A DNA stretch of 64,000 bases from a virus (IMGVR_UViG_3300047548_001271:32001-96000); one strand, 5' to 3'; numbered from the stretch's first letter, positions 3,220 to 51,116 are shown. Program-made: numbers and translations. Notes: generated by a model not told the origin, from the sequence alone.

Positions 3220-4053
3220 ATGTCAGAAAAGAGATTTACGTTTGAAGGCAAAGAATATGTTGTTAAGCCAATTTCTCGAAAAGCTGCAACAGAAGGCCAG
3301 AAGATTTATACTAAAGCGTTTAAGCGAGCCGTCGAAGAAGGTGCAATTCTAAAGAAAAGTCTTGACGATCATATGAGGAGACAAGGTCTCTGGGATGATA
3401 CTAAACAAGAAGAGTATATGTCCTTGATTAAAAAGAGTCAAGATATTGAATATAAGATTAAGAGTCGGTTTTATAAAAAAGCTTCTGAACTAAGAGATAA
3501 GGCTTTGGAATTGAAGAGATTGAGAAATAGCCTTTCCTCTTTACTGTCTGAGAAAAACTCAATGGACTCTGTAACTGCAGAAGGCCAAGCAGAAAACGAG
3601 AGATTTAACTATTTTGTATCCGTTTGTGTTTACGATTTTCTAACACAAAAACCAGTATTTTCTTCTCAAGAAGATTATGTTGAGAGAGGTGATACAGAAT
3701 TGGCTGGTAAATGCGCTTCAGAATTTGCCAATTATTTTTATGGTCTTGAAGAAAACTATGAAGACTCTTATGCAGAAAATAGAGTTCTCAAGCGAATTGG
3801 CTTAATCGATGATAAGGGTAATTTGATTGATCGTCAAGGTCGAAGAGTTGATACTGAGGGAAATCTGCTCGATGAAAATGGAGCAAGAGTTGATGAAAAT
3901 GGTCAACGAATTGACATCAATAACAACCCTATAATTAGCGATGATGTTTTAGATTCACTTGAGTTTGAGGATGATTTGGCTGTAAAACCAGTCGAAAAAC
4001 CAGTAATTGTCGAAACAGTTTATTCCGAAGAAACCGACGACACGAAAGAATAG
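3220..4053 (+). CDS. tail assembly chaperone-like protein with C-terminal D-x-x-G repeats
   Basis: Immediately upstream of tape measure gene; repeats DDKGNLI/DRQGRRV/DTEGNLL/DENGARV/DENGQRI. Confidence 0.55.
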   Translation: MSEKRFTFEGKEYVVKPISRKAATEGQKIYTKAFKRAVEEGAILKKSLDDHMRRQGLWDDTKQEEYMSLIKKSQDIEYKIKSRFYKKASELRDKALELKRLRNSLSSLLSEKNSMDSVTAEGQAENERFNYFVSVCVYDFLTQKPVFSSQEDYVERGDTELAGKCASEFANYFYGLEENYEDSYAENRVLKRIGLIDDKGNLIDRQGRRVDTEGNLLDENGARVDENGQRIDINNNPIISDDVLDSLEFEDDLAVKPVEKPVIVETVYSEETDDTKE

Positions 4054-4057
4054 TTAA

Positions 4058-7000
4058 ATGCTTAACGCCGCACTATTATTAAATGTTCAAGCTTCTCAGC
4101 AAAGTCTTAAACAATTAAATAGCACTATTACAAAGTCGCTATCTAATGTTGGCATTACAGTAAACTCTGCTAGTGCTGTAAAAGCGAATAGTCAAATACA
4201 ATCGCTTATGGCATCACAAAAACAGTTACAAAAAGTGCAACAAGATGCAAGCAAGACAGCAAAATCATTTTCTGATATTGTGGCGTTAAAGGGTGTTAAC
4301 TTCGTTCAATATACAATCGCAACTAGCGCCGTTTTGAGGCTTTCTAATGTCATAAGCGGCGCAACTCGCGAGTCTCTTAAATTTGAAAAAGAACTAGCTG
4401 TTTTAGCTCAAACTCTTAATCAGAGCAATGCGCAAGTTCAAGAATACTCAGATTCAATTTTAAAAATATCAAAAAATTACGGTCTAGCTCAAAATAAAGC
4501 CGCTGAATTAGTAAGAGTTTCAGCTCAAGCTGGTTTGTCAATTAGAGAATCATTAAAACTTGCTAATACATTAGCTAGAACCACGCTTATTGGAACATTT
4601 GAAGATTTAAATGAAACTCAAGAAGCAGCTATTTCTTTAATGTCGTCCTTTAAAACTAGTGTTGATGGTGCTGGCGAAGCAATTGATTCGATCAATGTTA
4701 TTTCTAAAAAATACGCCGTCGAATCTAGCGACTTGGTCGAAGTTATTAAAAGATCCGGTGGTGCGTTTAAAGCTTCTGGCGGCCAGCTTAATGAATTGTT
4801 GGCGGCATTTACTAGCGTTAGATCATACTCTCGTGAATCAGCAGACACAATCGCTACAGCGTTTAGAACAATTTTTGCTAGATTGCAAAGACCAAAAACG
4901 ATTGAATATTTTAAAACGCTTAATATTGAACTAGAAAAAGCTGGTGTATTTATTGGGAACTTTCAAGCTATTGAAGCTATTTCAAAAGGGCTTAAAGTAC
5001 AAAATATTGTTCCGGGTACTACAAAATTTGCTGAAGTTGTGGAGCAGATTGGTGGTATTAGACAGATTTCAAAAGTTATTCCATTATTAGAGAATTTTTC
5101 TGTAGCTCAAGATGCTCTAGCCCTTGCTAATAGAGGCGTTTCTGAATCGTCACAAGACGTTGCAACTGCACAAGAAACATTAATAGCCAGGATTGATAGA
5201 TTAAGAGCTAATTTTGCGGCTTTAATTACTGAAATCACACAGACGGAAAGTTTCAAAGCGATTGCTGACGCCTTTATAAATATGGCAAACGGAGCAATCG
5301 AATTAACTCGTCAATTAAAAGGTATAATCCCATTTATTGCTGCTATTTCAGGGTTTAAGCTTTCACTTGGTCTTGGTAGATATCTAAGCGGTAGAATAAA
5401 AAACCCCCCAAATAATCTACCAGTGACGCCAATGACAGCAAATACTGGAGGGTTTGTACCTGGTGTTGGTGATAGAGACACTGTCCCAGCTCTTTTAACC
5501 CCTGGCGAGTTTGTTATCAACAAGAAATCCGCAAAGGCTTATGGATATGGAAAACTTCATAAGATAAATAAATATGCTTTCGGAGGTAAGGTTTCTAAGC
5601 AACGAGCAACAACCTTTTCTGATAGAAGGTTTATGTCCAGAGGACCAAAATTAAAAGATTTTGCAGAAGCTGAAACTATATTACAAGATATTATTCGATC
5701 TTTATCTCCTGAAATACAAGAACTGTTAAAAAATAAATTCAAAGGAATATATCAAGCTTCTCCTGGTGAATTATTCCCTTTCGGAAAAGACACTCTCAAA
5801 CCACAATCTTTTGGTTATGCTCATAGAGTAGATAAATATATAGGCTTGAATAAAGATAAGATTGCTCTTGGTAACACCCCAAAACTTGTTGTTTCTCATG
5901 AGCTTGGTCATATTTTAGAAGGTCTAATGTCGGAAGCTAGAGGCGGTCCAGTCGGATCTATGCTTTCTGAAGGTGGAGCAACTACGGATACATTCCAGTC
6001 GGCATTAATTAAGTTGGTAAAACCAACTATGGAAAAGCAATACGCCGATATATTAACTAGTGGAAAAATTCCAGATCCAAAAAAAGCACAAGAAGAATTT
6101 GACTATTTAACAAGCAATGTTGAATTATTTGCCGACTTTTTTGCTAATTCAACAGATGAGGGTAGGAGAATACTTACAAGCACATCCCAAGTAAATCTTG
6201 GAATGGCGAGGTTAAAAGTTCATTTATTAAAAGCTGGAAAAACTTTTGCTGGTTTGTCTGCTGGAGATATTGACCCACAAGCAATCCCAAATGCAATTAC
6301 TCAATTAGAATCTGAATTGCAAAATTTAAGACCTGGACAAAATATACAACAATTAATAGCTCAATCGCAAGCGAAATCAGCGACTTATACTGGAGTTAGA
6401 CAAAGAAAAGAGGCTGATAAGGCGGCTTTGCGTAGTTCAGAAATAATACAGACGATAAGAATGCAGCAAGCACTTCCGATTGCGCAATCAGCTATAGACA
6501 AATTAGAAGACGCTAAACTAAATGTTCAAAAGGCGATTGATGAAGTTTATTTTGATAAAACTATGTATTCTCTAAGAGAGGATGATAAATCACACCAAGA
6601 AATTAACGCGATTTATGATCCAATTATTGCAGATCTGGAAAAAGCTAGGGACGGTTTTGATGCAGCAATGGATGAAATAGATAAAAGATTGGATTCTGAA
6701 ATAACTTCTCTTGAACGAGGGATAAAAAGAATTCAAAAGGCTATCGCCGGCTTAGAATCAGAAATCCTTGCACAAGATCAATTATTAGAGGCCGAGTCGA
6801 AAAACCGAGCACAATTATCTTCTATATTAGAAAAAAGAACTAAGATAGAAAAAGAATTACTAGTTCTTAAAAGAGTAGAAGCACAAAGACAAAAAGGTAT
6901 AGCATCAGCATTAGCAACAAAAGCGAGACAAGATGCAGCTTCAACACCAGAAAATAGATCGACTATTGGCGCTTCTTCTAATCAGTATGCTAAATCCAAA

Positions 7001-28643: not shown

Positions 28644-30268
28644 GATTCTTCTCCAAAATTTATTAAGCCAGTTCTTGCTTTTTCCCAGAAATTAGAATTT
28701 TTGGCTTTTCCAATAAATAATTTAATAGTGTCTTCTTTAGAAAAAGACGACAGATTTTGTCTTCCATAAATAGATAGTTCTGAGTAGAAATAACCATCTT
28801 TTGATGGTCTATAGCTCGCAGCGTTTAGATCTCTTCTCAACATTCTAATGTCGTGGCTGTATTTTCTCCAGCTATCAATTAAGTAGGCATCACAACACTT
28901 ATCAACAAAAACGGAATTAGGTATATTAGGCGGAAGATTTAATACGTCTTCTGATTTTATAATCGGTGCAACATCCCAATCTGCATAACCAACTGAATCA
29001 ATAGCATTCATCCATACTTCAGAAGATGATTCTAGTGAATAATTTTCTTCAAATAATGATCTTACTCTTCTTCTTTTCTCTTCGTTCGTTTGTGTTAATT
29101 TTTCAATAGCTTCACAAACAGATTCAGAAGATGGCACAGCTCTGTCACAACCAGTTTCCAACTCCTTATATTTTCCGTCCAACTCAATAGGAATCGCTTC
29201 TAACTTATGAATAACATCTTCCATAGCTGAGTATCTAGTACAAGCCACTGGCACTCCACAAGCAGCAGCTTCGATCTGTGGAATTCCAAAACCCTCACAG
29301 TTAGCACACTGAATATACCCATCAAATAAATTATACAGTTTTCCAAAAACTTCGTCATTAAGACCGTTTACAACATTAACAGTTTGCGATGTAAATTTAT
29401 TGCAGTTAATACAAAACTTTAATGAATCACAGAACTTTGAAACTTCAAAGCTGTTACAATTAGAACATACATAAGAAAAAAGAACACGATTTGCAATTCC
29501 ATTTTCATGCAATAATTGTGCTAAGTCCCACCCATTATCTGGATATGATGTATGACAATACAGATAAACATCTTTCGCTTGTGTTTTATCGAGATATTTT
29601 TTAAAAGCTTCAAAAAGCACTGGGAATAATTTTCTTCTTTGATTCCTCATTACGGTGCCTATAATTTTTATATTTTGGTCTATTCCAAATTCTTCTCTAA
29701 TTTTTGCCTTATCCATCATGTGAAAATGACAGTTCGCAGTTGGAGACGCAGTGCCAAAATATTTTACATTTCCTCCAGATTGTCCATTTATAATTTTTGC
29801 TCCCCAATCAGAATAAGTAATAATACCATCTGCATTTGAGAAGTAATGAACCCACTCTTCATTTTGAGGAGCCGCATCAATTGTTGGCATCCAAATCCAT
29901 TTAAAAATCCTTCTAAACGGAGATGAATATACAAAAGAATCCATCCAAAAATCTCGGATGGATAAGACAACATCTGGTTTAAAATCTAAACAAGCTCTTT
30001 CAAATCGAAAAGCTCCGAATTGGTTTTGTGGATTTTCTACGTATTTAGACAAACCATCTTTATCAGAGTCTAAAGGAATTACTGGATAATTTTTCCATTT
30101 TATCGTCTGCCTTCTTTTATCGTCTTCTTTTCCGTAGCAAGACAATTCTGCAATTTCATACTTTCCGGTTTTATCAAAGGCCTCCATCATATTTTTAGAA
30201 TATGTGGCGTAACCAGTATTTTGATACGTTGCCTCAGTTAAGAATAATAGTCTTTTTTTATTCTTCAT
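28631..30268 (-). CDS. GT-B (family 4-like) glycosyltransferase with Zn-ribbon insert
   Basis: TGYATY, RNQRRK, EGFGIPQIEAAACGVP. Confidence 0.9.
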   Translation of the reverse strand: MKNKKRLLFLTEATYQNTGYATYSKNMMEAFDKTGKYEIAELSCYGKEDDKRRQTIKWKNYPVIPLDSDKDGLSKYVENPQNQFGAFRFERACLDFKPDVVLSIRDFWMDSFVYSSPFRRIFKWIWMPTIDAAPQNEEWVHYFSNADGIITYSDWGAKIINGQSGGNVKYFGTASPTANCHFHMMDKAKIREEFGIDQNIKIIGTVMRNQRRKLFPVLFEAFKKYLDKTQAKDVYLYCHTSYPDNGWDLAQLLHENGIANRVLFSYVCSNCNSFEVSKFCDSLKFCINCNKFTSQTVNVVNGLNDEVFGKLYNLFDGYIQCANCEGFGIPQIEAAACGVPVACTRYSAMEDVIHKLEAIPIELDGKYKELETGCDRAVPSSESVCEAIEKLTQTNEEKRRRVRSLFEENYSLESSSEVWMNAIDSVGYADWDVAPIIKSEDVLNLPPNIPNSVFVDKCCDAYLIDSWRKYSHDIRMLRRDLNAASYRPSKDGYFYSELSIYGRQNLSSFSKEDTIKLFIGKAKNSNFWEKARTGLINFGEESWLN

Positions 30269-30692
30269 AAACTTCTCTTATCTCTCTCATTATCTGTCTA
30301 GTTTTTTTCAATGAAATTTTTAATTTTTTTGATATGTCTTTCATTGTAAAGCCAGAAAGTTTCATACGTAAAACCTCTTCTTCTGTGGAGTTGAAGTTTT
30401 TTATACAATCAAGATCATTTAATTCATATTCTACGTCTACACGTTTTGCTGCTTTAGAAATATCTCTACCAAGCTTTTGCGACTTCATAAATTTTATTAT
30501 ATCATTCCTAATGCACTTTGTTAGAAATGTAGATATTTTTGATTTTTCGCTATTGTATTTTTTCATGACTTTTACTATTGTCATGCAGCCAACCTGCTCT
30601 AAATCTTGCAGACTATAAACTGGATTTTTTTTGTAGAACGACTTGGCTATACTTTTTGCTAAAGGAATATGTTTTTCTATTTCTTCGTTCAT
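30258..30692 (-). CDS. sigma-70 family sigma factor (small)
   Basis: Region 2 DLEQVG...KYN...STF; region 4 HTH GFTMKDISKKL. Confidence 0.8.
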   Translation of the reverse strand: MNEEIEKHIPLAKSIAKSFYKKNPVYSLQDLEQVGCMTIVKVMKKYNSEKSKISTFLTKCIRNDIIKFMKSQKLGRDISKAAKRVDVEYELNDLDCIKNFNSTEEEVLRMKLSGFTMKDISKKLKISLKKTRQIMREIREVYEE

Positions 30693-32263
30693 ATTAAAAA
30701 TATACTTTCAACTATAAATGATTTTCTTACAGGGTCTTTTATTTCTCCGCTGATAAGAACGAGTGCGTCTTCATATATTATATCTTTGTTTTGCCCGTAC
30801 AAGTCAGTGAAAATGACAACATTCTCTAATTGAGAAGATTCATCCTCTAAGGTAAGAAAGCACATTTCTTCACCCTTTTTAGTCTTATGCACTTTGATAC
30901 GTTTGATAATAGCGGCAATTGTTGACCTCGACATTTTACCATTAGCAATCTCTACGCATCTAGTATCGGCGTGTCCGGCCTCAGCAGAGGCAGTTAGCTC
31001 TGAATGGTAGATCGAACAACCCAGCAGCTTTTCTTCGATCTTTGCATACACAGAAGGATTATCCTTCAATGATCTTCCTGGATTATTCAATCTTGTGATG
31101 ATATCTTTGACTTTTAGAAGTCTCGCTGCCGTAGAAATAAATCCAACTTCGCCTCGCTTTTTCTTAACGCCTTTATCAACTAAAGACTGAATAATGTCGA
31201 TGATTGGCTTGCTCTTATCATAAGATAGTTTAATTGCTTCAACTTCATTGTCGTTTAGGTCATTTAGACATGAGAATTCATGCAGCATTTCAGATCTAGT
31301 TTTGCCAAAACCAGAAAATGTACCAACAGAAATCATGTTCTCTATTGCTTTTTTATTGATATTATACAAACCCTCAATTAATAGTTGAGACCATGTTGGT
31401 TTTGGATTCTCATCTAAAAACTTCTTTAAGTCATCATGGTGGGCTTGTCCGACATATTTTATATTGCAGACTCCAAATCTTATACAATTATATTTTGAAT
31501 CCCAAAAGAAATCGTCAGAAAGTCGAGTATAATGAGGCCCAGCAACTTCTAGGTCTTTTCCTTTAGTTGCCATAACAAGCTCTTTGACTTCTACGTCCGG
31601 ATCAACTTTGTCAGCAGCCAGTCTCAACCAGTTTACAAAGAATTTTTTAGGTCTATGATATTTAACATAAGCAGACCAATATGATAATGTAGCATAGCAC
31701 ACGCTGTGGCTAGCATTGAACGAATATCTATTGCTTTTTTCGATAATATCAAATACTTCTATAGCTTTTTCTTCTGTTATGTTATTTTTTACACAACCTT
31801 CTATAAAGCTAAGTCTAACCTTTGCCATCAGATCGGCTTTTTTCTTACCAATAGCTTTTCGCAAATCATCAGCTTGTTCTAGCGTGAATTTAGCCATAAC
31901 CTCTGCGATTTTCATTGACTGTTCTTGATATACAATAACCCCATAAGTCTTCTGAAGAATATGGTCTATTGATTCATGAAAGCTCGTGGGCTTCTCTAGG
32001 CCATGTTTTCTATCACAGTAGATCTGAGTCATTGACTTGCCACCCGCTGAGCTAGCCAAGCATCCTGGGCGTATTAGAGCGATTACGTCGGAAAGCTCCG
32101 AGATAGTTCTTGGTTTGATTTTTTTCACCCAACTCTTACCAAGATAGCTCTCAATCTGAAAACAACCTTTTACTTGTCCATCACAAATCATATCCCAAAC
32201 ATCTGGGTCGTTTAGATTACATGTCTGTATATTAAGATCGTCTTCAGCTAAAGCCTTAAACAT
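30689..32263 (-). CDS. dnaE: DNA polymerase III alpha, C-terminal fragment (fingers, HhH, OB)
   Basis: GCFQIES, ALIRPG, TYGVIVYQEQ, ADDLRKAIGKKK, YSFNASHSVCY, OB fold MCFLTLED. Confidence 0.92.
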   Translation of the reverse strand: MFKALAEDDLNIQTCNLNDPDVWDMICDGQVKGCFQIESYLGKSWVKKIKPRTISELSDVIALIRPGCLASSAGGKSMTQIYCDRKHGLEKPTSFHESIDHILQKTYGVIVYQEQSMKIAEVMAKFTLEQADDLRKAIGKKKADLMAKVRLSFIEGCVKNNITEEKAIEVFDIIEKSNRYSFNASHSVCYATLSYWSAYVKYHRPKKFFVNWLRLAADKVDPDVEVKELVMATKGKDLEVAGPHYTRLSDDFFWDSKYNCIRFGVCNIKYVGQAHHDDLKKFLDENPKPTWSQLLIEGLYNINKKAIENMISVGTFSGFGKTRSEMLHEFSCLNDLNDNEVEAIKLSYDKSKPIIDIIQSLVDKGVKKKRGEVGFISTAARLLKVKDIITRLNNPGRSLKDNPSVYAKIEEKLLGCSIYHSELTASAEAGHADTRCVEIANGKMSRSTIAAIIKRIKVHKTKKGEEMCFLTLEDESSQLENVVIFTDLYGQNKDIIYEDALVLISGEIKDPVRKSFIVESIFLI

Positions 32264-32948
32264 TAAAACAACCCTTAAAGTTTTCTTTGGATACTTTATT
32301 ACGAATGAATTTCATAGTTCTGCAAAACAATTCGGCGGTCATCATAACGTCGGACATAGCATCGTGTGCAGTTCCTTTAGAATAACCCATGTGACCTCTT
32401 ATTAAATTATCCGCACTTAGAGATGAAACTTCTTTATCATTCTCAAAAAAGCTAAACATGAATGGATACATATCAATTACATTGATTATGCTAAACAAAT
32501 CTTGTCTATTTTCTTTATTTGATGGTCCATATTTATAAGGTTCTTTACAGCAAATCCTTTCAACAATAGGCATGTCAAAATTTACAATATTATAACCAGT
32601 TGCAATTGGTGCTGTAAAATTGCTATTACCAGTATTGAACTGCTTACAATATTCAGTAAAATTTGACCATACCGACTCAAGAGATGGAGCATTTTCTAGC
32701 ATCTCTTTAGTCTTTCCATGTTTTTTAACAGCGTCATCTGTTAATGGATCAAGATTCAATTTTTTGCATTTTTCTTCATCAAAAATTGGACGGATCAATG
32801 ATTGAAATTCTGTTCCGTGCTTTATCTCTAATTTTCGGCCATGAATAACTACCGCAGCAATTTGAACTGGTTGTGTTGTCGCAGCAAACTTAGAAGTGGT
32901 TTCAAAGTCAAAACATATAAAATCTCTATAATTCATTAATCTCTCCAA
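32256..32948 (-). CDS. DEDDh 3'-5' exonuclease (DnaQ-like)
   Basis: DFET, GYNIVNFD, HDAMSD. Confidence 0.9.
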   Translation of the reverse strand: MERLMNYRDFICFDFETTSKFAATTQPVQIAAVVIHGRKLEIKHGTEFQSLIRPIFDEEKCKKLNLDPLTDDAVKKHGKTKEMLENAPSLESVWSNFTEYCKQFNTGNSNFTAPIATGYNIVNFDMPIVERICCKEPYKYGPSNKENRQDLFSIINVIDMYPFMFSFFENDKEVSSLSADNLIRGHMGYSKGTAHDAMSDVMMTAELFCRTMKFIRNKVSKENFKGCFNV

Positions 32949-33430
32949 TAATTTTCTACTTTAATTTTTTTAGACATTGCGTATTTAACTGTGTAAAATG
33001 TTCCACTTTCTTGTTCTAATGGATTAAGCAAAGCAAAAACCATATCACAGTTATCAACCATAGCTCTATCTCTTTCAGTGAAAGCGGATGGTTTATATTG
33101 ATCATGAAGAACTACAACTTTTTCAGCTTTACCTATTATTTGATTATACTTTTCTTTAGTTGATGTTGGCCAAGCTGATTCTTGACCTTTAAATGGTATA
33201 TAACAATGAATTGGTATTTCAAGTTCAATAGCGACTTCAGCTAGCCAAGTGTCAAATCCAATTGCCATACCTGTGATAATATGACTTATTTGCCCGCTGT
33301 TATAGCCAACATCTAAGTCACAATATAGTCTATTTTTTAGATTTTTCAACCATGGATGGTTATCATTATATTTACAAGGACAATATTTTGGTCTATGCCC
33401 AGTTCCTGCAATTCTATTCATAATCTCCAA
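32936..33430 (-). CDS. SLOG-superfamily protein (YspA/DUF1273-like)
   Basis: GTGHRP, TGMAIGFD, RDRAMVD, SGTFYTV. Confidence 0.85.
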   Translation of the reverse strand: MEIMNRIAGTGHRPKYCPCKYNDNHPWLKNLKNRLYCDLDVGYNSGQISHIITGMAIGFDTWLAEVAIELEIPIHCYIPFKGQESAWPTSTKEKYNQIIGKAEKVVVLHDQYKPSAFTERDRAMVDNCDMVFALLNPLEQESGTFYTVKYAMSKKIKVENYWRD

Positions 33431-34262
33431 TTCCTTCGCAAGTCATTTGTATTTTACTTAAAAGAGAAACGCCAAGAATATCAAATTTTGTGCATCCAAT
33501 AGCTTCAAGATCACCCATTTCCATTCCAGCAATTTTAGCATTTCCTCTAGCTTCTTTGATCATTGGGCAGACCTCATTTAGCAAATCTAATGAAATAACT
33601 ACACCAGCGGCGTGTTTACCTTGAGATTTGTATGTTCCTTCCAACCGTATAGCTTGTTCAAAATCTCTCGCATATTCACCTTTCAAAGATCCATCTTCGT
33701 CTATCCAACAATAATCAGACAACTCTTTAGGTGTGTTCTCAAGGGACCACATTAATATTGACGGCCTTTCCATATCTTTCAACTCATCGGAAATTTCAGC
33801 CTCGTCTGGTATATATTTTGTGATTTGGTTCATTTGTTCCGGAGAACATCTATCATTGACTCTTAGAACTTCTTTTAGGATCGATTTGCCTTGAAGCCGA
33901 CCAAACGTAATCATTTGACAAACTCTGTCCGAGCTATACTTATCTCGAAGATATTGAATAACATCTTCTCTAATTTCTGGTGGAAAGTCAACGTCAATGT
34001 CTGGTAAGGAGTAGTTTCCTTTTATAAACTTAACAGGTTTTGTCTTATCTAAATCATCGCATTTTCCACAAACCCATAACACATAACTATTTTTTGAATT
34101 TGATTTTACTTCGACATTTTCTATTATGTGCTTATAGTAGGCAAATCCATTTTTCATTTCTGATATGATATTACATTCTTCAATAAAGAACGGATTGTTC
34201 TCTACTTCTTCAAGTCTATTATCAATAGGTCTTAATCCGTTTTTACTCAATACTGAATTCAT
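33414..34262 (-). CDS. dnaE: DNA polymerase III alpha, middle fragment (catalytic palm, thumb)
   Basis: LPDIDVDF, GKHAAGVVIS, KFDILG (all three catalytic Asp). Confidence 0.92.
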   Translation of the reverse strand: MNSVLSKNGLRPIDNRLEEVENNPFFIEECNIISEMKNGFAYYKHIIENVEVKSNSKNSYVLWVCGKCDDLDKTKPVKFIKGNYSLPDIDVDFPPEIREDVIQYLRDKYSSDRVCQMITFGRLQGKSILKEVLRVNDRCSPEQMNQITKYIPDEAEISDELKDMERPSILMWSLENTPKELSDYCWIDEDGSLKGEYARDFEQAIRLEGTYKSQGKHAAGVVISLDLLNEVCPMIKEARGNAKIAGMEMGDLEAIGCTKFDILGVSLLSKIQMTCEGIGDYE

Positions 34263-34455
34263 CTATACTCTTTCTAATACTCTTTCTAGTTTCTATAATA
34301 ATATTATAAAATCCGTTTATCAACCAAGATTCTATATACACACCATTGAATTTAGTAAAGAGTGGCAAATCCCATGTTGTTTTCAATAAACCTTCTGATA
34401 TTTGACCCTCTAATTTATTAACTATATTTTTAATCATATTCTTTCTCAAAATCAT
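34243..34455 (-). CDS. small hypothetical protein
   Basis: ORF track; MIKNIVNKLEGQISE resembles start of 34490..34627. Confidence 0.5.
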   Translation of the reverse strand: MILRKNMIKNIVNKLEGQISEGLLKTTWDLPLFTKFNGVYIESWLINGFYNIIIETRKSIRKSIDEFSIE

Positions 34456-34489
34456 ATTTTTTACTAATAATCATTACAAGCATTCTTTA

Positions 34490-34627
34490 TTATTTCATAA
34501 ATATTACCAAATCTGTGCCTTGATAAAACCGCAAAATATGATCCATGTAAAATACATCGTTTGAGCTGATTATTTCAGCTTCTGAGATTTTATATTTTAA
34601 TTTATAAATTATATTTTTTAATATCAT
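34490..34627 (-). CDS. small hypothetical protein (45 aa, below ORF track cutoff)
   Basis: Manual translation MILKNIIYKLKYKISEAEII... Confidence 0.4.
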   Translation of the reverse strand: MILKNIIYKLKYKISEAEIISSNDVFYMDHILRFYQGTDLVIFMK

Positions 34628-34638
34628 TTGTTACAACT

Positions 34639-34842
34639 TTAATTAAAGTCTTTTGTGATTTGTTTAGCAATAAATGCTTTGGCATAAATCCCAATAAAGT
34701 TATTGATTCTATATTCATTACGGTTTTTAAGAGAAAATCGATAATAGTTTTCTAAATCGCTATTATTGATTTTGTATTTACCAAAAAAATAATATTCAAT
34801 TATACATTTAGTATAATAATTTAAATCAATTAATTTTTTCAT
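34639..34842 (-). CDS. small hypothetical protein
   Basis: Likely start MKKLIDL overlapping the end of the dnaE N-terminal fragment. Confidence 0.45.
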   Translation of the reverse strand: MKKLIDLNYYTKCIIEYYFFGKYKINNSDLENYYRFSLKNRNEYRINNFIGIYAKAFIAKQITKDFN

Positions 34843-36055
34843 TGTATTCGTACTCATCAAAACTAATCTTATCTCTTGAAAATCTACCACCATTAAAAAA
34901 TCGCTCAAAAAGTAAGCCGTATTCAATTGGATCAACTAGCGTAATCCCTAGTAGATAACAAACTAATGATCCGGCACCGCTGCCTCTTCCAGGTCCAATT
35001 AAATAACCTTTTGATCTAAAGTGGTTAACATAATCTTGTACAATTAAAAAGTAACCAGAAAGACCAGTGTTTGATATAACTCCAAGCTCATATAATACTC
35101 TATTTTTATATTCCTCTTGTTTTTCTGCTGGAATTTTATCTTTGATTAATTTTCTCCATCCAGAACGACAAAGCTCTTTTAGATATTCCTCTTGAGACAT
35201 TCCACTTGGGCAACTAAAGGAAGGAAGTTTTGGGTTTGACAAAATATTGAATTGTGTTATTTTACTAATTAAGTCTGAGAAATTATCTTCGTTAATTGAT
35301 CTAATATAGTAAGAACTATTTCGTATGAACATTAGCAAGTTTGTATTGTTGCTATTCTCTTTTTCTATTTTGTCTTGCAGTCTTTCAAGCGTTGTTTTTA
35401 GCTTAGAGCATAGAATAACTCTATGGTCTATCGAGTCACACCTTTTATTGTAAAAACTAGAAGAAAATGGTATTTTTTTTACATTAGTATTTATTAAGGC
35501 TTCTCTAAGAACTTTTATCGCTAAAAGCGTTGTTGAATCTTGATCATCAATTTCTATGTAATAGTCTTCGCCAAATATATTTTGCATTTCTTGTATTACA
35601 CTGCTAGGATCGGCGATATTGTAGGATTCAACATCTGCAAAGTCAATGGACTCTCCTAAGCAGTGACGAGCTAAGCGACTCCCTAAATAACCATCAACAC
35701 AAACGAAGTTTTGAGGATTTATTAGTGTAATAAGTTCTTCAAATGATATTTTTGCCCCTTTGTCATAATTATCCTCGTCATTACATCTTGATATAACAAC
35801 AAGTAAATTCTTCCAAGCATTAATATTTTTACAGAACAAACAGATAGACGACCCATCCTTTAACACTATCTCTGAGCCAATTATTGGTATTATTTCATTC
35901 TCTTTACAAGCTTTAAGGAATGATATGACGCCGCTGATTGAACCAATATCACAAATACCAGCATGTTTATATCCAAGCTCTTTACATCTCTTTACTATGT
36001 CTTTTGGCTTCTGAGTTGACAATAGTAATGAATAATGAGAATGATTTCTTAGCAT
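34826..36055 (-). CDS. dnaE: DNA polymerase III alpha, N-terminal fragment (PHP domain and start of palm)
   Basis: NHSHYSLL, PIIGSE, GYFLIVQD, GPGRGSGAGSLVCYLLGIT..DP...LLFERF. Confidence 0.92.
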   Translation of the reverse strand: MLRNHSHYSLLLSTQKPKDIVKRCKELGYKHAGICDIGSISGVISFLKACKENEIIPIIGSEIVLKDGSSICLFCKNINAWKNLLVVISRCNDEDNYDKGAKISFEELITLINPQNFVCVDGYLGSRLARHCLGESIDFADVESYNIADPSSVIQEMQNIFGEDYYIEIDDQDSTTLLAIKVLREALINTNVKKIPFSSSFYNKRCDSIDHRVILCSKLKTTLERLQDKIEKENSNNTNLLMFIRNSSYYIRSINEDNFSDLISKITQFNILSNPKLPSFSCPSGMSQEEYLKELCRSGWRKLIKDKIPAEKQEEYKNRVLYELGVISNTGLSGYFLIVQDYVNHFRSKGYLIGPGRGSGAGSLVCYLLGITLVDPIEYGLLFERFFNGGRFSRDKISFDEYEYNEKIN

Positions 36056-36056
36056 T

Positions 36057-37058
36057 TTAATCCTTCGCTATTCTTCCGCCGCCGTCTTGATATTTTGTAA
36101 TTTTCTTTAAGTCTGCGTATTTTTCTGTGACTTTTTTAATTCCATCTCTTTTTATTTCTTTGTGCATCGCTTGGCATATAGTATCTCCATTTTCTGTCAA
36201 TTCTGAAAAATTGCATAGCTTTGTACATTTGAAATCGGTGTTATTTGCAGAAACTTGCTTAGGTATTTGAACATTTTTTATGTATTCAAATTTTTGTCGA
36301 AGCATTGATTCAGCTTTTATATAATCAGATTCATCAAATGGCAAGTCAAAAACACCACCATCGTTAACATAAAAGATACTAGTATAAAATGAATACTCTG
36401 GATAAAGATTTTTGATCGCATAATAGTATAAAAGTAATTGAGGGTCTTTTTGAAAATCTTCATATTCTTTAATCTTTCCAGTTGCCCAGTCTTTTCTTTT
36501 CCCACTTTTGTAGTCTAATATCTGAAAGTATTTTTCATCCTCTTGTATGATTAGGTCAACTGTGCCTTTGATAGATAAATAACCAGATATTTTTTGTCCA
36601 TTAACTTCATAATCATACTTAGCCCAATCTTGTTTTATTTCTATATCAAAAAATTTTTCAGTAGCAAATACGTTTTGATTTCTTGGGTCGTACATTCCAT
36701 TTTTGTATAATATTGTCTTATATACCCAAGAAATACAAGTCTGCAAATCAGCTTCTGTTAAACCTAAATCTGGCTCTAGCTTGGAATAGTGTTCGAAAGC
36801 TAGCGTCGTAATATACTCGATATCATCGCACTGGGCAAATGTCAAATCCTCTAAATCGTCATTTTTTAGCTTTCTTTTTTTAGTTTTTTGTGCTAATTTT
36901 TTATCGGCTAGGATTTGTAAGGCTCGATGCATGATTGTTCCCATTGTCGCCTTTTTGTTTTGCTTGCCTTTAAAACCCAAAACATATGTGAAAAAATATT
37001 GCATTTCACACATACTAAGCGTGCCAATAGAACTAGATCTTAAATAACATATCATCAT
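36057..37058 (-). CDS. PD-(D/E)XK exonuclease, Cas4/AddB-like
   Basis: GTIMH, GTVDL, DYKSG, QLLLY; one N-terminal and three C-terminal Cys. Confidence 0.85.
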   Translation of the reverse strand: MMICYLRSSSIGTLSMCEMQYFFTYVLGFKGKQNKKATMGTIMHRALQILADKKLAQKTKKRKLKNDDLEDLTFAQCDDIEYITTLAFEHYSKLEPDLGLTEADLQTCISWVYKTILYKNGMYDPRNQNVFATEKFFDIEIKQDWAKYDYEVNGQKISGYLSIKGTVDLIIQEDEKYFQILDYKSGKRKDWATGKIKEYEDFQKDPQLLLYYYAIKNLYPEYSFYTSIFYVNDGGVFDLPFDESDYIKAESMLRQKFEYIKNVQIPKQVSANNTDFKCTKLCNFSELTENGDTICQAMHKEIKRDGIKKVTEKYADLKKITKYQDGGGRIAKD

Positions 37059-49085: not shown

Positions 49086-51116
49086 TTAAAAAATTCTAGT
49101 ATTAAGTTTTTGAGGTTTGAAACCATTGTAACCAGAGAAAGCCCAACAATCACCGCTTTTTAGAATTCTATTTTCAATTTCTTGGGCATCAACCCAGAAT
49201 GAACCATCTGGTTGATTATGTCTTTTTGGTCCACTATTCCAGACTCCCCAAGAATTTTGAACTAACACTCCAGGTCTTTTATATTCGTCGTCAACGGCAA
49301 TAATGCACATTTGATGCGCCCAATTTCCTTCTGGTTTAGCAAAACCTTCAGAATCTCTCTTGTTAGAAAACCCTTGATTACTAGCAATCGTAACAGCATA
49401 ACCATTTACAATTAAATCTCTAACTTCGTTATATGTTTTTACTTGGGACACAGTTAATACACTATGTTCCTTAGCTATTGGTATTAATTCTGCTGGAACA
49501 CCAACACTTGGCATTCCCCAAGATTTTGCTCGCTGTGCATCATATTTTGATAAATCAATATTTCCATATTTCTGTCTTGCTAAAGCCCCGAATTTACTAA
49601 CATATTCTGCGGCCCACGCACCTAACGATCCATCGTCAGATCCGATTTGCCCCTTGCCAATTTGTACTCTGCTGCCAGCGTAAATATCCTCAGTAGCTGT
49701 CTCAGCAACCCACTCCTCAAACTCTTTATTAAGGAAGATATCTACGGCTTTAATAATATCTACTGCATATGCGGCTCCCATTGATACACAATTGTGAATT
49801 CCATATCCATTGCATATAAACGAATGATCTTCTTCTACTCCTATACAATATACGTATTCAGTTTCAGGTTCAACAATTTCTATTTTACATATTTTTGCAG
49901 CCTTACCATACTTAGTAACTTGCTTTTGGTTTAATTTTAATCCAATCGCTTGTTGTGTTAATACATCTACACCACAGTTAAGATTTAGTGAAAAAGATTC
50001 TTTGCTTTGTTTATACGCTTTTCTTTTTTGAATAGAACAATTTATATTAATTGAGTTTGCTATTTGAAAAAAATCATATATTAAATTTTCTGAAACAGAA
50101 ACTCCAATTTGATTATTATATCCATCACCATCCATCCATCCAGATAAAATCTGTAGTTTATTTTGTTCTGTTGTTATGAGTAAATCTTTATTTAATTTTT
50201 TGTTGTAAACATTACCAGAACATAATTTCTTAAATAGAGAACTGATAAGTAAATTTTGAACTCTTACATATATTATAGATGGTTTTGAAGGAACTGACGT
50301 TATGATGGCGTCAAAATCAAAAACGTCTTTAATATACGATTTTATCTTATTTGCTAACACGACCTCTTTAGAAGATAAGTTAAAGGTTATTCTTCCATTA
50401 TCAATACCGCCCTCTGCCGCATAAATCCCAATTAACCAGCAAAGCTTTTCATCTAAATCAATAAACCTGTTTATTTCTTTACTTGATCCTTTTACTCTTA
50501 TTTTATTAAAAAAAACAGGTTGTGTTCTTAATTTTTTAAAATCAGATTCGCTTGTTATAGATTCACCACATAAATCTTTTAAGTCGTATTTATATTTATT
50601 AATTGAAGGAAGTTTTGGTAATAGAATATAGTCGCCTTCATTTAAAGCGACTATAGGCTTCCATTCTATTTTAGATTTGTCTCCTGATTTACCCCTTCCA
50701 ACATTTGGAAGATACATATATAAATGATCTGGAGTTGACTCTATTGGTTTTTTATAGCCAGAAACGTGTATTCTTACCATGCTTTTATTGTATGGTTTTT
50801 TTATATAGTCTATAACTCTTCTAATGTTTCCATAAGGACTTATTACATATTCTCCTATCTTTATATCTTTTATTTGTTTTTCAGACCCATCCGCCATTCG
50901 AACCATAGCAGATGGATTTTGACAGTCGCCAATACCTTGATTCCTATTAGGAAATGAACCAGCAACTTTCTCTACAATCTGATATAGTAATGCTTTTTTA
51001 CCAGCACCGCTATCCTTAATTGGAGCCCAAACATCATTAAAAACCGGGAAAGGTAATCTATTCATTACCTTTTCAACTAAGTTTGGTTTATTTACCCATC
51101 CAAATTTATTACTCAT
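49086..51116 (-). CDS. papain-like (C1) cysteine peptidase containing an intein
   Basis: After removing the intein: NQGIGD-CVSMG (oxyanion Q, catalytic C), WAHQM (H), VQNSWG (N). Confidence 0.85.
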   Translation of the reverse strand: MSNKFGWVNKPNLVEKVMNRLPFPVFNDVWAPIKDSGAGKKALLYQIVEKVAGSFPNRNQGIGDCQNPSAMVRMADGSEKQIKDIKIGEYVISPYGNIRRVIDYIKKPYNKSMVRIHVSGYKKPIESTPDHLYMYLPNVGRGKSGDKSKIEWKPIVALNEGDYILLPKLPSINKYKYDLKDLCGESITSESDFKKLRTQPVFFNKIRVKGSSKEINRFIDLDEKLCWLIGIYAAEGGIDNGRITFNLSSKEVVLANKIKSYIKDVFDFDAIITSVPSKPSIIYVRVQNLLISSLFKKLCSGNVYNKKLNKDLLITTEQNKLQILSGWMDGDGYNNQIGVSVSENLIYDFFQIANSININCSIQKRKAYKQSKESFSLNLNCGVDVLTQQAIGLKLNQKQVTKYGKAAKICKIEIVEPETEYVYCIGVEEDHSFICNGYGIHNCVSMGAAYAVDIIKAVDIFLNKEFEEWVAETATEDIYAGSRVQIGKGQIGSDDGSLGAWAAEYVSKFGALARQKYGNIDLSKYDAQRAKSWGMPSVGVPAELIPIAKEHSVLTVSQVKTYNEVRDLIVNGYAVTIASNQGFSNKRDSEGFAKPEGNWAHQMCIIAVDDEYKRPGVLVQNSWGVWNSGPKRHNQPDGSFWVDAQEIENRILKSGDCWAFSGYNGFKPQKLNTRIF
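49791..50924 (-). mobile_element. intein with LAGLIDADG homing endonuclease (378 aa)
   Basis: Starts at Cys (CQNPSAMVRMADG), block B STPDH, WLIGIYAAEG and LSGWMDGDG motifs, ends VYCIGVEEDHSFICNGYGIHN followed by Cys+1. Confidence 0.92.

Follow-up and report, generated by a model that had tools for sequence, protein, structure and literature searches.

A DnaE-type DNA polymerase encoded in three pieces in an uncultured aquatic phage: one break common to the family and a second probably linked to a homing-endonuclease cassette

The 64,000-nucleotide (nt) stretch IMGVR_UViG_3300047548_001271:32001-96000, hereafter the window, comes from an uncultured aquatic phage and encodes a DnaE-type (C-family) DNA polymerase as three separate, collinear open reading frames (ORFs), F1, F2 and F3, on the minus strand between positions 30689 and 36055. 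C-family polymerases are the replicases of bacteria, and all solved structures that match here are single chains, with an active site built from palm and finger elements of one chain. A single-polypeptide catalytic core is not the case in the window, where the three ORFs are parted by stop codons and other genes. We consider it probable that their products form a non-covalent, three-chain polymerase in which the break between palm and fingers (break 2) is a family-wide arrangement, while the break within the palm (break 1) represents a homing-endonuclease cassette. The original prediction for this locus had proposed a heterotrimeric polymerase without inteins; it missed the apparently different origins of the two breaks, namely the distribution of break 2 across the family and the position of break 1 in a putative homing-endonuclease cassette.

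F1 (34826-36055, minus strand; 409 amino acids, aa) comprises the PHP domain and the N-terminal, nucleoside triphosphate (NTP)-binding palm subdomain. Pfam assigns PHP (PF02811) to F1 residues 2-171 with 81.1 bits (cut-off 26.4), and the DNA_pol3_alpha model (PF07733) is divided between two ORFs, with positions 1-100 matching F1 (116.9 bits) and positions 99-260 matching F2 (113.7 bits). The GRGS motif was read in the F1 sequence at 34979-34990 (minus strand, aa 356-359), and residues G354, R357, G358 and S359 are invariant across 37 homologues. F2 (33414-34262, minus strand; 282 aa) consists of a helical N-terminal extension and a core (33414-34007, minus strand) that contains the C-terminal palm, the thumb and all three catalytic aspartates; its motifs PDIDVD (33987-34004, aa 87-92) and KFDILG (33471-33488, aa 259-264), both on the minus strand, are in place, and D88, D90 and D261 are invariant in homologues. 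F2 residues 83-277 align with E. coli alpha 396-571, and an AlphaFold2 (AF2) model of F2 superposes on the palm and thumb of DnaE and PolC with Z scores of 8-14 (E. coli alpha 399-576; Taq 461-639). F3 (30689-32263, minus strand; 524 aa) carries the fingers and, less clearly, HhH and OB fold. The fingers are well supported (DNA_pol3_finger, PF17657, 153.8 bits), whereas the matches to HHH_6 (22.8 bits against a cut-off of 25.6) and to the OB fold (24 bits against 27) are weak and stay below threshold. The F3 motifs GCFQIES, YQEQ, LRKAIGKKK (31838-31864, minus strand) and FNASHS are present, LRKAIGKKK being the aligned counterpart of E. coli LRRAMGKKK; in the alignment with E. coli alpha, F3 residues 7-330 correspond to 581-902, and a second stretch, residues 448-509, corresponds to 995-1055. 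The canonical enzyme is complete across F1, F2 and F3, with nothing lost and nothing duplicated. The collinear order of the three fragments at 30689-36055 and the integrity of GRGS, PDIDVD, KFDILG and GCFQIES, all part of the original prediction, are borne out by the ORF coordinates, the order of the Pfam matches and the motifs themselves.

Two scans of IMG/VR yielded ~160 related viral loci at 35-74% identity. For one pair with the three-piece arrangement, L085 and L104, the ratio of non-synonymous to synonymous substitution rates (dN/dS) is 0.024 for F1, 0.015 for F2, 0.040 for F3, 0.062 for an exonuclease gene located in break 2 and 0.19 for an endonuclease gene located in break 1. Within the last 40 codons of F1, which cover the end of the N-terminal palm subdomain and the tail, three synonymous and no non-synonymous changes separate the pair. 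All three pieces are conserved and under strong purifying selection in this pair, with no relaxation of selection on any fragment (0.015-0.04). A decaying or misassembled dnaE in a phage that relies on the polymerase of its host, or on another one, would account for the junk-like appearance of the interval between F1 and F2 (gap 1), which is AT-rich and holds small ORFs of no family, and our polymerase scan was confined to the 64-kb window. We nevertheless consider decay or misassembly extremely unlikely: all catalytic motifs are intact, start and stop codons along the locus are tightly coupled, and the same three-piece layout recurs in many diverged relatives with the low dN/dS values given above. 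Moreover, the identical gene order is found on an 83-kb contig assembled independently from another data set, which argues against misassembly.

In most relatives F1 and F2 form one ORF, in which GR-NTEDHVS runs directly into LPDIDVDF. In the window, F1 ends in a stub tail (34826-34861, minus strand; aa 399-409 and the stop codon) of 11 residues after the serine of GR-NTEDHVS. This stub forms the upstream end of the cassette; its tail motif SF-x-E-F/Y is common to other split forms, and the stub is absent in cassette-free relatives. The downstream end is the F2 N-terminal extension (34008-34262, minus strand; aa 1-85), a five-helix module that adds 84 residues before the F2 core. F2 had been thought to resume at SLPDIDVDF, which needs correction, as the ORF starts 84 residues earlier with this conserved helical extension. 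Residues E29, Y42, Y43, N55, N58 and S59 of the extension are invariant in 59 homologues, and in diverged pairs the extension changes faster than the core, yet non-synonymous differences stay far below synonymous ones. Stand-alone F2-like proteins with the extension are numerous (280-300 aa, identity down to 43%). A search with an extension profile returned 36 matching clusters among 1.84 billion representatives; in two of them the extension is internal to a continuous PHP-palm protein of 678-689 aa, and in the others it starts within ~25 residues of the N-terminus. About ten extension-first proteins measure 766-1171 aa, a length that by itself suggests F2 fused to F3. P0361, P0373, P0375, P0382, P0387 and P0390 (766-951 aa, extension-first) would, by length, be two-piece DnaE proteins cut only at break 1. 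If the long extension-first proteins are F2-F3 fusions, break 1 occurs both with and without break 2.

Nine long contigs with a stand-alone, extension-bearing F2 were sampled for the content of break 1. Eight of them harbor a gene of 226-310 aa between F1 and F2, and the ninth (L087) lacks it. This gene opens ~20-80 nt past the F1 stop codon, except on one of the eight contigs (2rFXsbbe), where it overlaps the end of F1; an overlap with the F2 start is common to all eight. LAGLIDADG_3 was matched with 27.9-35.6 bits (cut-off 22.5) in the three intervening genes that were scanned, and both GDG/ADG motifs are kept in all six aligned endonucleases, as in double-motif LAGLIDADG enzymes. Loci with a LAGLIDADG gene at break 1 include L081-L086, L088-L090 and L104. 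The window has no endonuclease gene at this position. Its gap 1 (34263-34825, minus strand) measures 563 nt and is AT-rich, with small ORFs at 34639-34935, 34490-34627 and 34243-34455, none of which has a Pfam match or an assigned family. No LAGLIDADG remnant was identified in gap 1, where tblastn with the enzymes of three relatives, as well as a profile of six relatives' endonucleases run against all six-frame pieces, gave chance-level scores only. In L170, F1 and F2 meet in a TAATG stop/start overlap and the endonuclease is gone; a fusion of the two by frameshifting was considered here, but no slippery site was seen in the sequence of this junction. The window and L170 have lost the endonuclease but stay split. 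In L094 only the C-terminal third of the endonuclease is left; although this locus carries a split intein at GRG|S, only ~50 aa upstream, F1 and F2 remain unjoined. In P0010 and in the frameshift-ridden L087, stub, short linker and extension lie in one continuous frame, which places the endonuclease in the linker of an in-frame insertion of ~110 residues.

As a separate observation, DnaE of L094 is divided into at least five pieces (4000-5300), with an ORF between the halves of the split intein at GRG|S, a middle extein fragment of ~50 aa that ends in the usual stub, the LAGLIDADG remnant and an extension-bearing F2; its fingers gene is interrupted too. Two of the gap-1 ORFs in the window, 34243-34455 and 34490-34627 (both minus strand), open with similar sequence (MILKNIIYKLKYKISEAEII and MILRKNMIKNIVNKLEGQISEG, respectively) and may reflect a local duplication; both are also predicted by a gene caller on the independent contig. 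A terminator-like site was not found in gap 1, where promoter and terminator scans are uninformative owing to the AT-rich DNA.

LAGLIDADG endonucleases usually reside in introns or inteins, and this phage family uses inteins heavily, with split inteins at GRG|S in the DnaE of relatives and an intein elsewhere in the window. The pieces might accordingly be rejoined into a single- or two-chain enzyme by a divergent intron, by trans-splicing of an atypical split intein, by ribosomal bypass or by frameshifting. No Hint or intein domain was found in F1, F2 or F3 with Pfam, as the original prediction held for the breaks, while the same library detects inteins in the DnaE or F1 proteins of relatives (P0221, P0229, P0230 and P0236), which served as positive controls. 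The window ORF at 49086-51116 (minus strand, 676 aa) includes a genuine intein (Intein_splicing 35.9 bits, Hom_end_hint 25.2 bits), so that this genome uses protein splicing elsewhere. An atypical split intein with a short N part and a long C part was considered and rejected: the extension is protein-coding, conserved and five-helical, which excludes a Hint fold, and the residue preceding (L/M)PDIDVDF is S, A or Q, with neither a conserved +1 nucleophile (Ser, Thr or Cys) nor a conserved preceding Asn. A group I or II intron in gap 1 was likewise rejected, as Rfam returned no match at E up to 1 in window positions 30000-37000 or up to 0.1 in five relatives, models that could miss very divergent introns, and gap-1 RNA is scarcely more stable than its shuffles (folding z-score -1.85). 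In relatives the endonuclease ORF occupies this interval and leaves only short spacers; in P0010 and L087 stub and extension are kept in frame and hence not excised; and a gap of 563 nt lies far beyond any known ribosomal hop. No element able to rejoin F1, F2 and F3 was detected, and we judge covalent rejoining by any of these routes very improbable.

The non-covalent reading with a cassette at break 1 can be viewed against the distribution of the cassette. On every tree the sister of the window is L091, in which F1 and F2 are fused and the cassette is missing; identity between the two is 74% for the F2 core, 80% for the exonuclease, 72% for the YpsA-family protein encoded beside it and 66% for F3. 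The uninterrupted allele is present in L091 and >100 other loci. Mapped on the F3 tree, nine insertion-bearing rows need 8 changes compared with 8.8 for shuffled labels. On a tree built from DnaE sequence flanking the cassette (F1 minus its stub, and the F2 core), the eight alleles that bear the cassette require at least 5 changes; holding these eight together as one clade lowers the log-likelihood by 890 and is rejected by an approximately unbiased (AU) test (p about 1e-51). Similarity among the endonucleases does not track the host gene: those of L085 and L088 are 55% identical though the loci belong to different major clades, and those of L081 and L083, from a single clade, share only 41% identity. 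Synonymous divergence between L085 and L104 is 0.040 in the endonuclease and 0.018 in the extension (a single change), relative to 0.135 in the F2 core and 0.080 in F1; this lower divergence of endonuclease and extension, based on few sites, hints at a recent co-conversion tract. The patchiness fits repeated gain by homing, repeated precise loss, or both, and not one ancient event followed by vertical descent.

To what the helical module corresponds was addressed by structure comparison. All five helices are modeled confidently by AF2, with a predicted local distance difference test (pLDDT) of about 80-94 (above 90 within F2, mean of 80 for the extension alone). Compared alone with 48,161 PDB representatives, the extension reaches Z 2 with 16 chains, of which the six highest-scoring belong without exception to the C-family polymerases (PolC 9qpc and 3f2b; DnaE 5lew, 5fku, 5m1s and 7pu7; Z 2.9-4.5), Taq 2hpi being eighth. 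Each polymerase match places 77-80 of the 85 extension residues on the segment just before PDxD (E. coli 287-399; Z 2.5-4.5), and the top matches are the palm N-subdomain of DnaE and PolC (Z 3.9-4.5). A structural search of the ESM Atlas with the extension likewise returned DnaE proteins, with template modeling (TM) scores of 0.58-0.63, while Foldseek with the extension alone gave no match and an hhalign comparison with the fused family had a P of 0.36. Although low, the PDB Z scores head an unbiased list in which all these polymerase matches fall on one homologous segment. At the level of the fold only, the models support the extension as a degenerate copy of the palm N-subdomain. Sequence-level proof of such a duplication was sought and failed, as the profiles did not rise above shuffled controls. 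In the F1 stub, S-F-x-E-F/Y bears a loose resemblance to S-L-P-D-I-D, which would fit an overlapping duplication around break 1; the stub is very short.

The same likeness could be read differently, with F2 and F3 forming the enzyme by means of a pseudo N-subdomain in F2 and F1 acting outside the polymerase as a stand-alone PHP nuclease or pyrophosphatase. The best structural matches of the extension would agree with this, as would one alignment of the AF2 model of F2, in which residues 10-84 of the extension fall on E. coli alpha 309-398, where the true N-subdomain lies (root-mean-square deviation 8.9). The extension, however, lacks GRGS, which is invariant in F1; F1 evolves under the constraint described above (dN/dS 0.024, and no non-synonymous change in its last 40 codons) and is always adjacent and co-oriented; and a complex model of F1 and F2 reproduces the PHP-palm interface of intact DnaE. 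We therefore regard an F1 outside the polymerase as very unlikely. The complex model, calculated for the window proteins from alignments made for this analysis, yielded an interaction prediction score from aligned errors (ipSAE) of 0.85 compared with 0.00 for the best control; the mark applied is reached by 58 of 80 solved complexes and by 2 of 110 mismatched pairs. Model runs share at least 77% of contacts, with partner pLDDT of at least 81, and the modeled interface combines the PHP-palm contacts of intact DnaE with extension residues 29-59 and the F1 tail (386-403). As structures of intact DnaE are solved, this pass may reflect only likeness to them and is no proof of binding. The placement of F1 and F2 together thus agrees with the original prediction, in a test that halves of a known fold are expected to pass.

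Break 2 lies between palm and fingers and holds a DEDDh (RNase T/epsilon-like) 3'-5' exonuclease gene (32256-32948, minus strand; Pfam RNase_T 58.6 bits) with motifs FDFET, NFDMP and HDAMSD; the enzyme is likely the proofreader. Palm, exonuclease and fingers genes are separate ORFs, in that order, in every fetched locus spanning break 2, which often also holds a small ORF or extra genes. This break is a family-wide and apparently old arrangement, and a literature search found no publication describing a DnaE parted in this way around an exonuclease gene. The breakpoints predicted for the window recur in relatives, those of break 2 across the family and those of break 1 in a subset. Between F2 and the exonuclease gene, the window carries a gene of the YpsA/SLOG family (32936-33430, minus strand; Pfam YpsA 72 bits), found at this position only in a subset composed of the window, L091 (5593-6093) and the contigs of P0019 and P0010. 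The notion that unrelated genes fill both gaps needs correction: the gap at break 2 holds this YpsA/SLOG gene and the exonuclease gene, the latter polymerase-related in function, and gap 1 contains only the three small ORFs of no family rather than recognizable genes. The YpsA ATG overlaps the F2 stop codon and the F3 start overlaps the exonuclease stop by 8 nt, so that F2, YpsA, exonuclease and F3 are chained through overlapping stop and start codons, the usual mark of translational coupling. Because of these overlaps the four proteins are probably made together.

Single-chain viral DnaE relatives of 1052-1154 aa also exist. In L169 (5312-9159) a one-piece dnaE is immediately preceded by the exonuclease gene, with a 4-nt overlap, and the module is otherwise syntenic; split and unsplit forms thus differ in where the exonuclease gene stands relative to the sequence that encodes PHP and palm. 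The single-chain protein of this locus, P0249 (1052 aa), is 38-41% identical to F3, and its neighborhood resembles that of the window, with primase, deoxynucleoside monophosphate (dNMP) kinase (DNMK), PD-(D/E)XK and glycosyltransferase genes. In an F3 tree calculated with FastTree and rooted on bacterial DnaE, single-chain viral forms make up two clusters nested among split forms, requiring at least 3 changes. Apart from the two breaks, the fingers gene is interrupted near the position of window F3 residue ~184 in several relatives (L091, L088, L089 and L094): L091 (7318-10122) has an in-frame insertion of ~1.3 kb, and in L088 the gene is present as two ORFs of 272 and 386 aa. The F3-like proteins P0241 and P0242 contain LAGLIDADG and Intein_splicing domains. 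This fingers-gene site appears to be another hot spot at which mobile elements enter the polymerase.

From the anatomy of the locus, its conservation, the lack of a detectable intein or intron and the patchy occurrence of the cassette, the following course of events can be proposed. F1 would supply the PHP domain and the NTP-binding half of the palm with the GS motif, F2 the Mg-binding half with the three aspartates and the thumb, and F3 the fingers, HhH and OB fold; the three chains would be translated separately and assemble without covalent joining. At break 1, a cassette consisting of the stub, in most relatives a LAGLIDADG gene, and the 84-aa helical module would have inserted just before the catalytic PDIDVDF, and the endonuclease would spread it by homing into uninterrupted alleles. 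Module and stub may serve as an additional clasp through which the severed palm comes together again. In the window, the endonuclease gene would since have been lost while the split persisted. More tentatively, and with considerable doubt, stub, LAGLIDADG gene and module might constitute a distinct kind of mobile element that invades the active site of an essential gene without being an intron or intein. It would bring along a "protein splint" in the form of a degenerate palm N-subdomain, by which the two halves of the cut enzyme could reassemble non-covalently, so that the split would outlive the endonuclease, as in the window and L170. The non-covalent, multi-chain polymerase at the heart of the original prediction gains support from the missing rejoining element, the purifying selection and the F1-F2 model.

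Several points weigh against this interpretation. Assembly, activity, homing and the role of the module are what we infer from genes and models. The link of break 1 to homing in the window draws on its relatives, as the window itself has neither an endonuclease nor a remnant of one, and patchiness alone does not separate repeated gain from repeated precise loss. Regarding the module, similarity to the palm N-subdomain is weak (Z under 5), and a profile-profile comparison with the palm-N block scored 11.3 against 11.1 +/- 2.4 in 60 column-shuffled controls. Since single-chain viral forms fall within the split clade, break 2 has had no simple history, and change may have run in either direction. 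Finally, no other polymerase, including family B, was found among the replication-module ORFs scanned, all of them within the 64-kb window, and a further polymerase may be encoded beyond it.

The genes surrounding the polymerase form a phage replication module with ribonucleotide reductase (RNR), PhoH, RecA, DnaB, primase, dNMP kinase and a PD-(D/E)XK nuclease. Close cultured relatives were not identified among 50,697 phage records, in which the best protein identity is ~30-35% and DNA comparison gave only a chance match of 100 nt. The PD-(D/E)XK nuclease gene lies just upstream of F1 and in the window (36057-37058) encodes 333 aa without a LAGLIDADG_3 match. Its counterparts in L085 (1952-3895), L086 (1907-3895) and the contigs of P0019 and P0010 encode 647-662 aa; three of these four longer copies match LAGLIDADG_3, probably as part of an intein, and the copy on the P0010 contig (650 aa) matches PDDEXK_1 only.

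Split genes of related kinds are known from T4-related phages. In Aeromonas phage Aeh1, nrdA is split by mobE and the split NrdA is fully functional, and in Aeromonas phage 25 the family-B polymerase is encoded as gp43A and gp43B with seg43(25), the halves of which co-purify and polymerize (PMC2988022). The window resembles these "genes in pieces" in that the cut falls in a functionally critical part of an essential replication enzyme, the cut is occupied by a free-standing endonuclease gene (here in relatives), uninterrupted alleles exist in related phages, and non-covalent reassembly is required in the absence of an intron or intein, which was demonstrated experimentally for Aeh1 and phage 25 and is read here from genes. 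It differs in that the enzyme belongs to the C family (DnaE) and comes in three pieces, the endonuclease is of the LAGLIDADG type rather than HNH or GIY-YIG, the cut brings ~100 extra codons (stub and module) that are kept in the proteins, and the split persists in the window without an endonuclease.

A DnaE divided by a split intein is the form familiar from cyanobacterial dnaE-n and dnaE-c. "Fractured genes" described from marine metagenomes combine split inteins with free-standing endonucleases and include three DnaE loci (Dassa et al. 2009, PMC2677866). They share with the present family a DnaE in pieces, an origin in aquatic, metagenomic, phage-like DNA and an endonuclease gene between the halves, here in relatives only, and relatives of the window carry split inteins of this type at GRG|S. 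The halves of fractured genes, however, have Hint motifs (Cys1, Asn-Cys) and are ligated by trans-splicing, whereas the breaks in the window have neither Hint motif nor nucleophile, the flanking extension is helical and the endonuclease is absent. Group 2.2 jumbo phages are predicted to encode a minimal split Pol III alpha whose Pol-beta-like catalytic module is divided into an N-terminal, NTP-binding and a C-terminal, Mg/template-binding protein (Iyer et al. 2021, PMC7824862). Its structural seam is the same as that of the F1|F2 break, but the jumbo-phage version lacks PHP and other DnaE domains, and its halves are encoded far apart and beside a family-B polymerase; the window, in contrast, encodes a full-length DnaE of the replicative type by adjacent genes in a replication module. 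The two-piece palm|fingers DnaE with an exonuclease gene, found in uncultured aquatic phages, corresponds to break 2, to which the window adds a second, independent break in the palm. What is new here is a full-length C-family enzyme of the replicase type in three chains, combining a family-wide break with a second break that marks a cassette, in a window that appears to represent a stage at which the fission has outlasted the endonuclease.

If this reading is correct, a natural, selected enzyme with its dNTP-binding GS motif, metal-binding aspartate triad and finger residues on three different polypeptides would show where the C-family fold tolerates cutting, and the locus would offer a ready-made system for studying the assembly of an active site and for engineering split enzymes. 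Under the more tentative splint reading, homing would be a direct route to permanent gene fission. Alleles that are uninterrupted, alleles with split inteins and free endonucleases, cassettes with an endonuclease but no intein, and splits that lack an endonuclease all occur in one gene of this family, a near-complete series in which to test how a single gene comes to be broken into several by selfish endonucleases.

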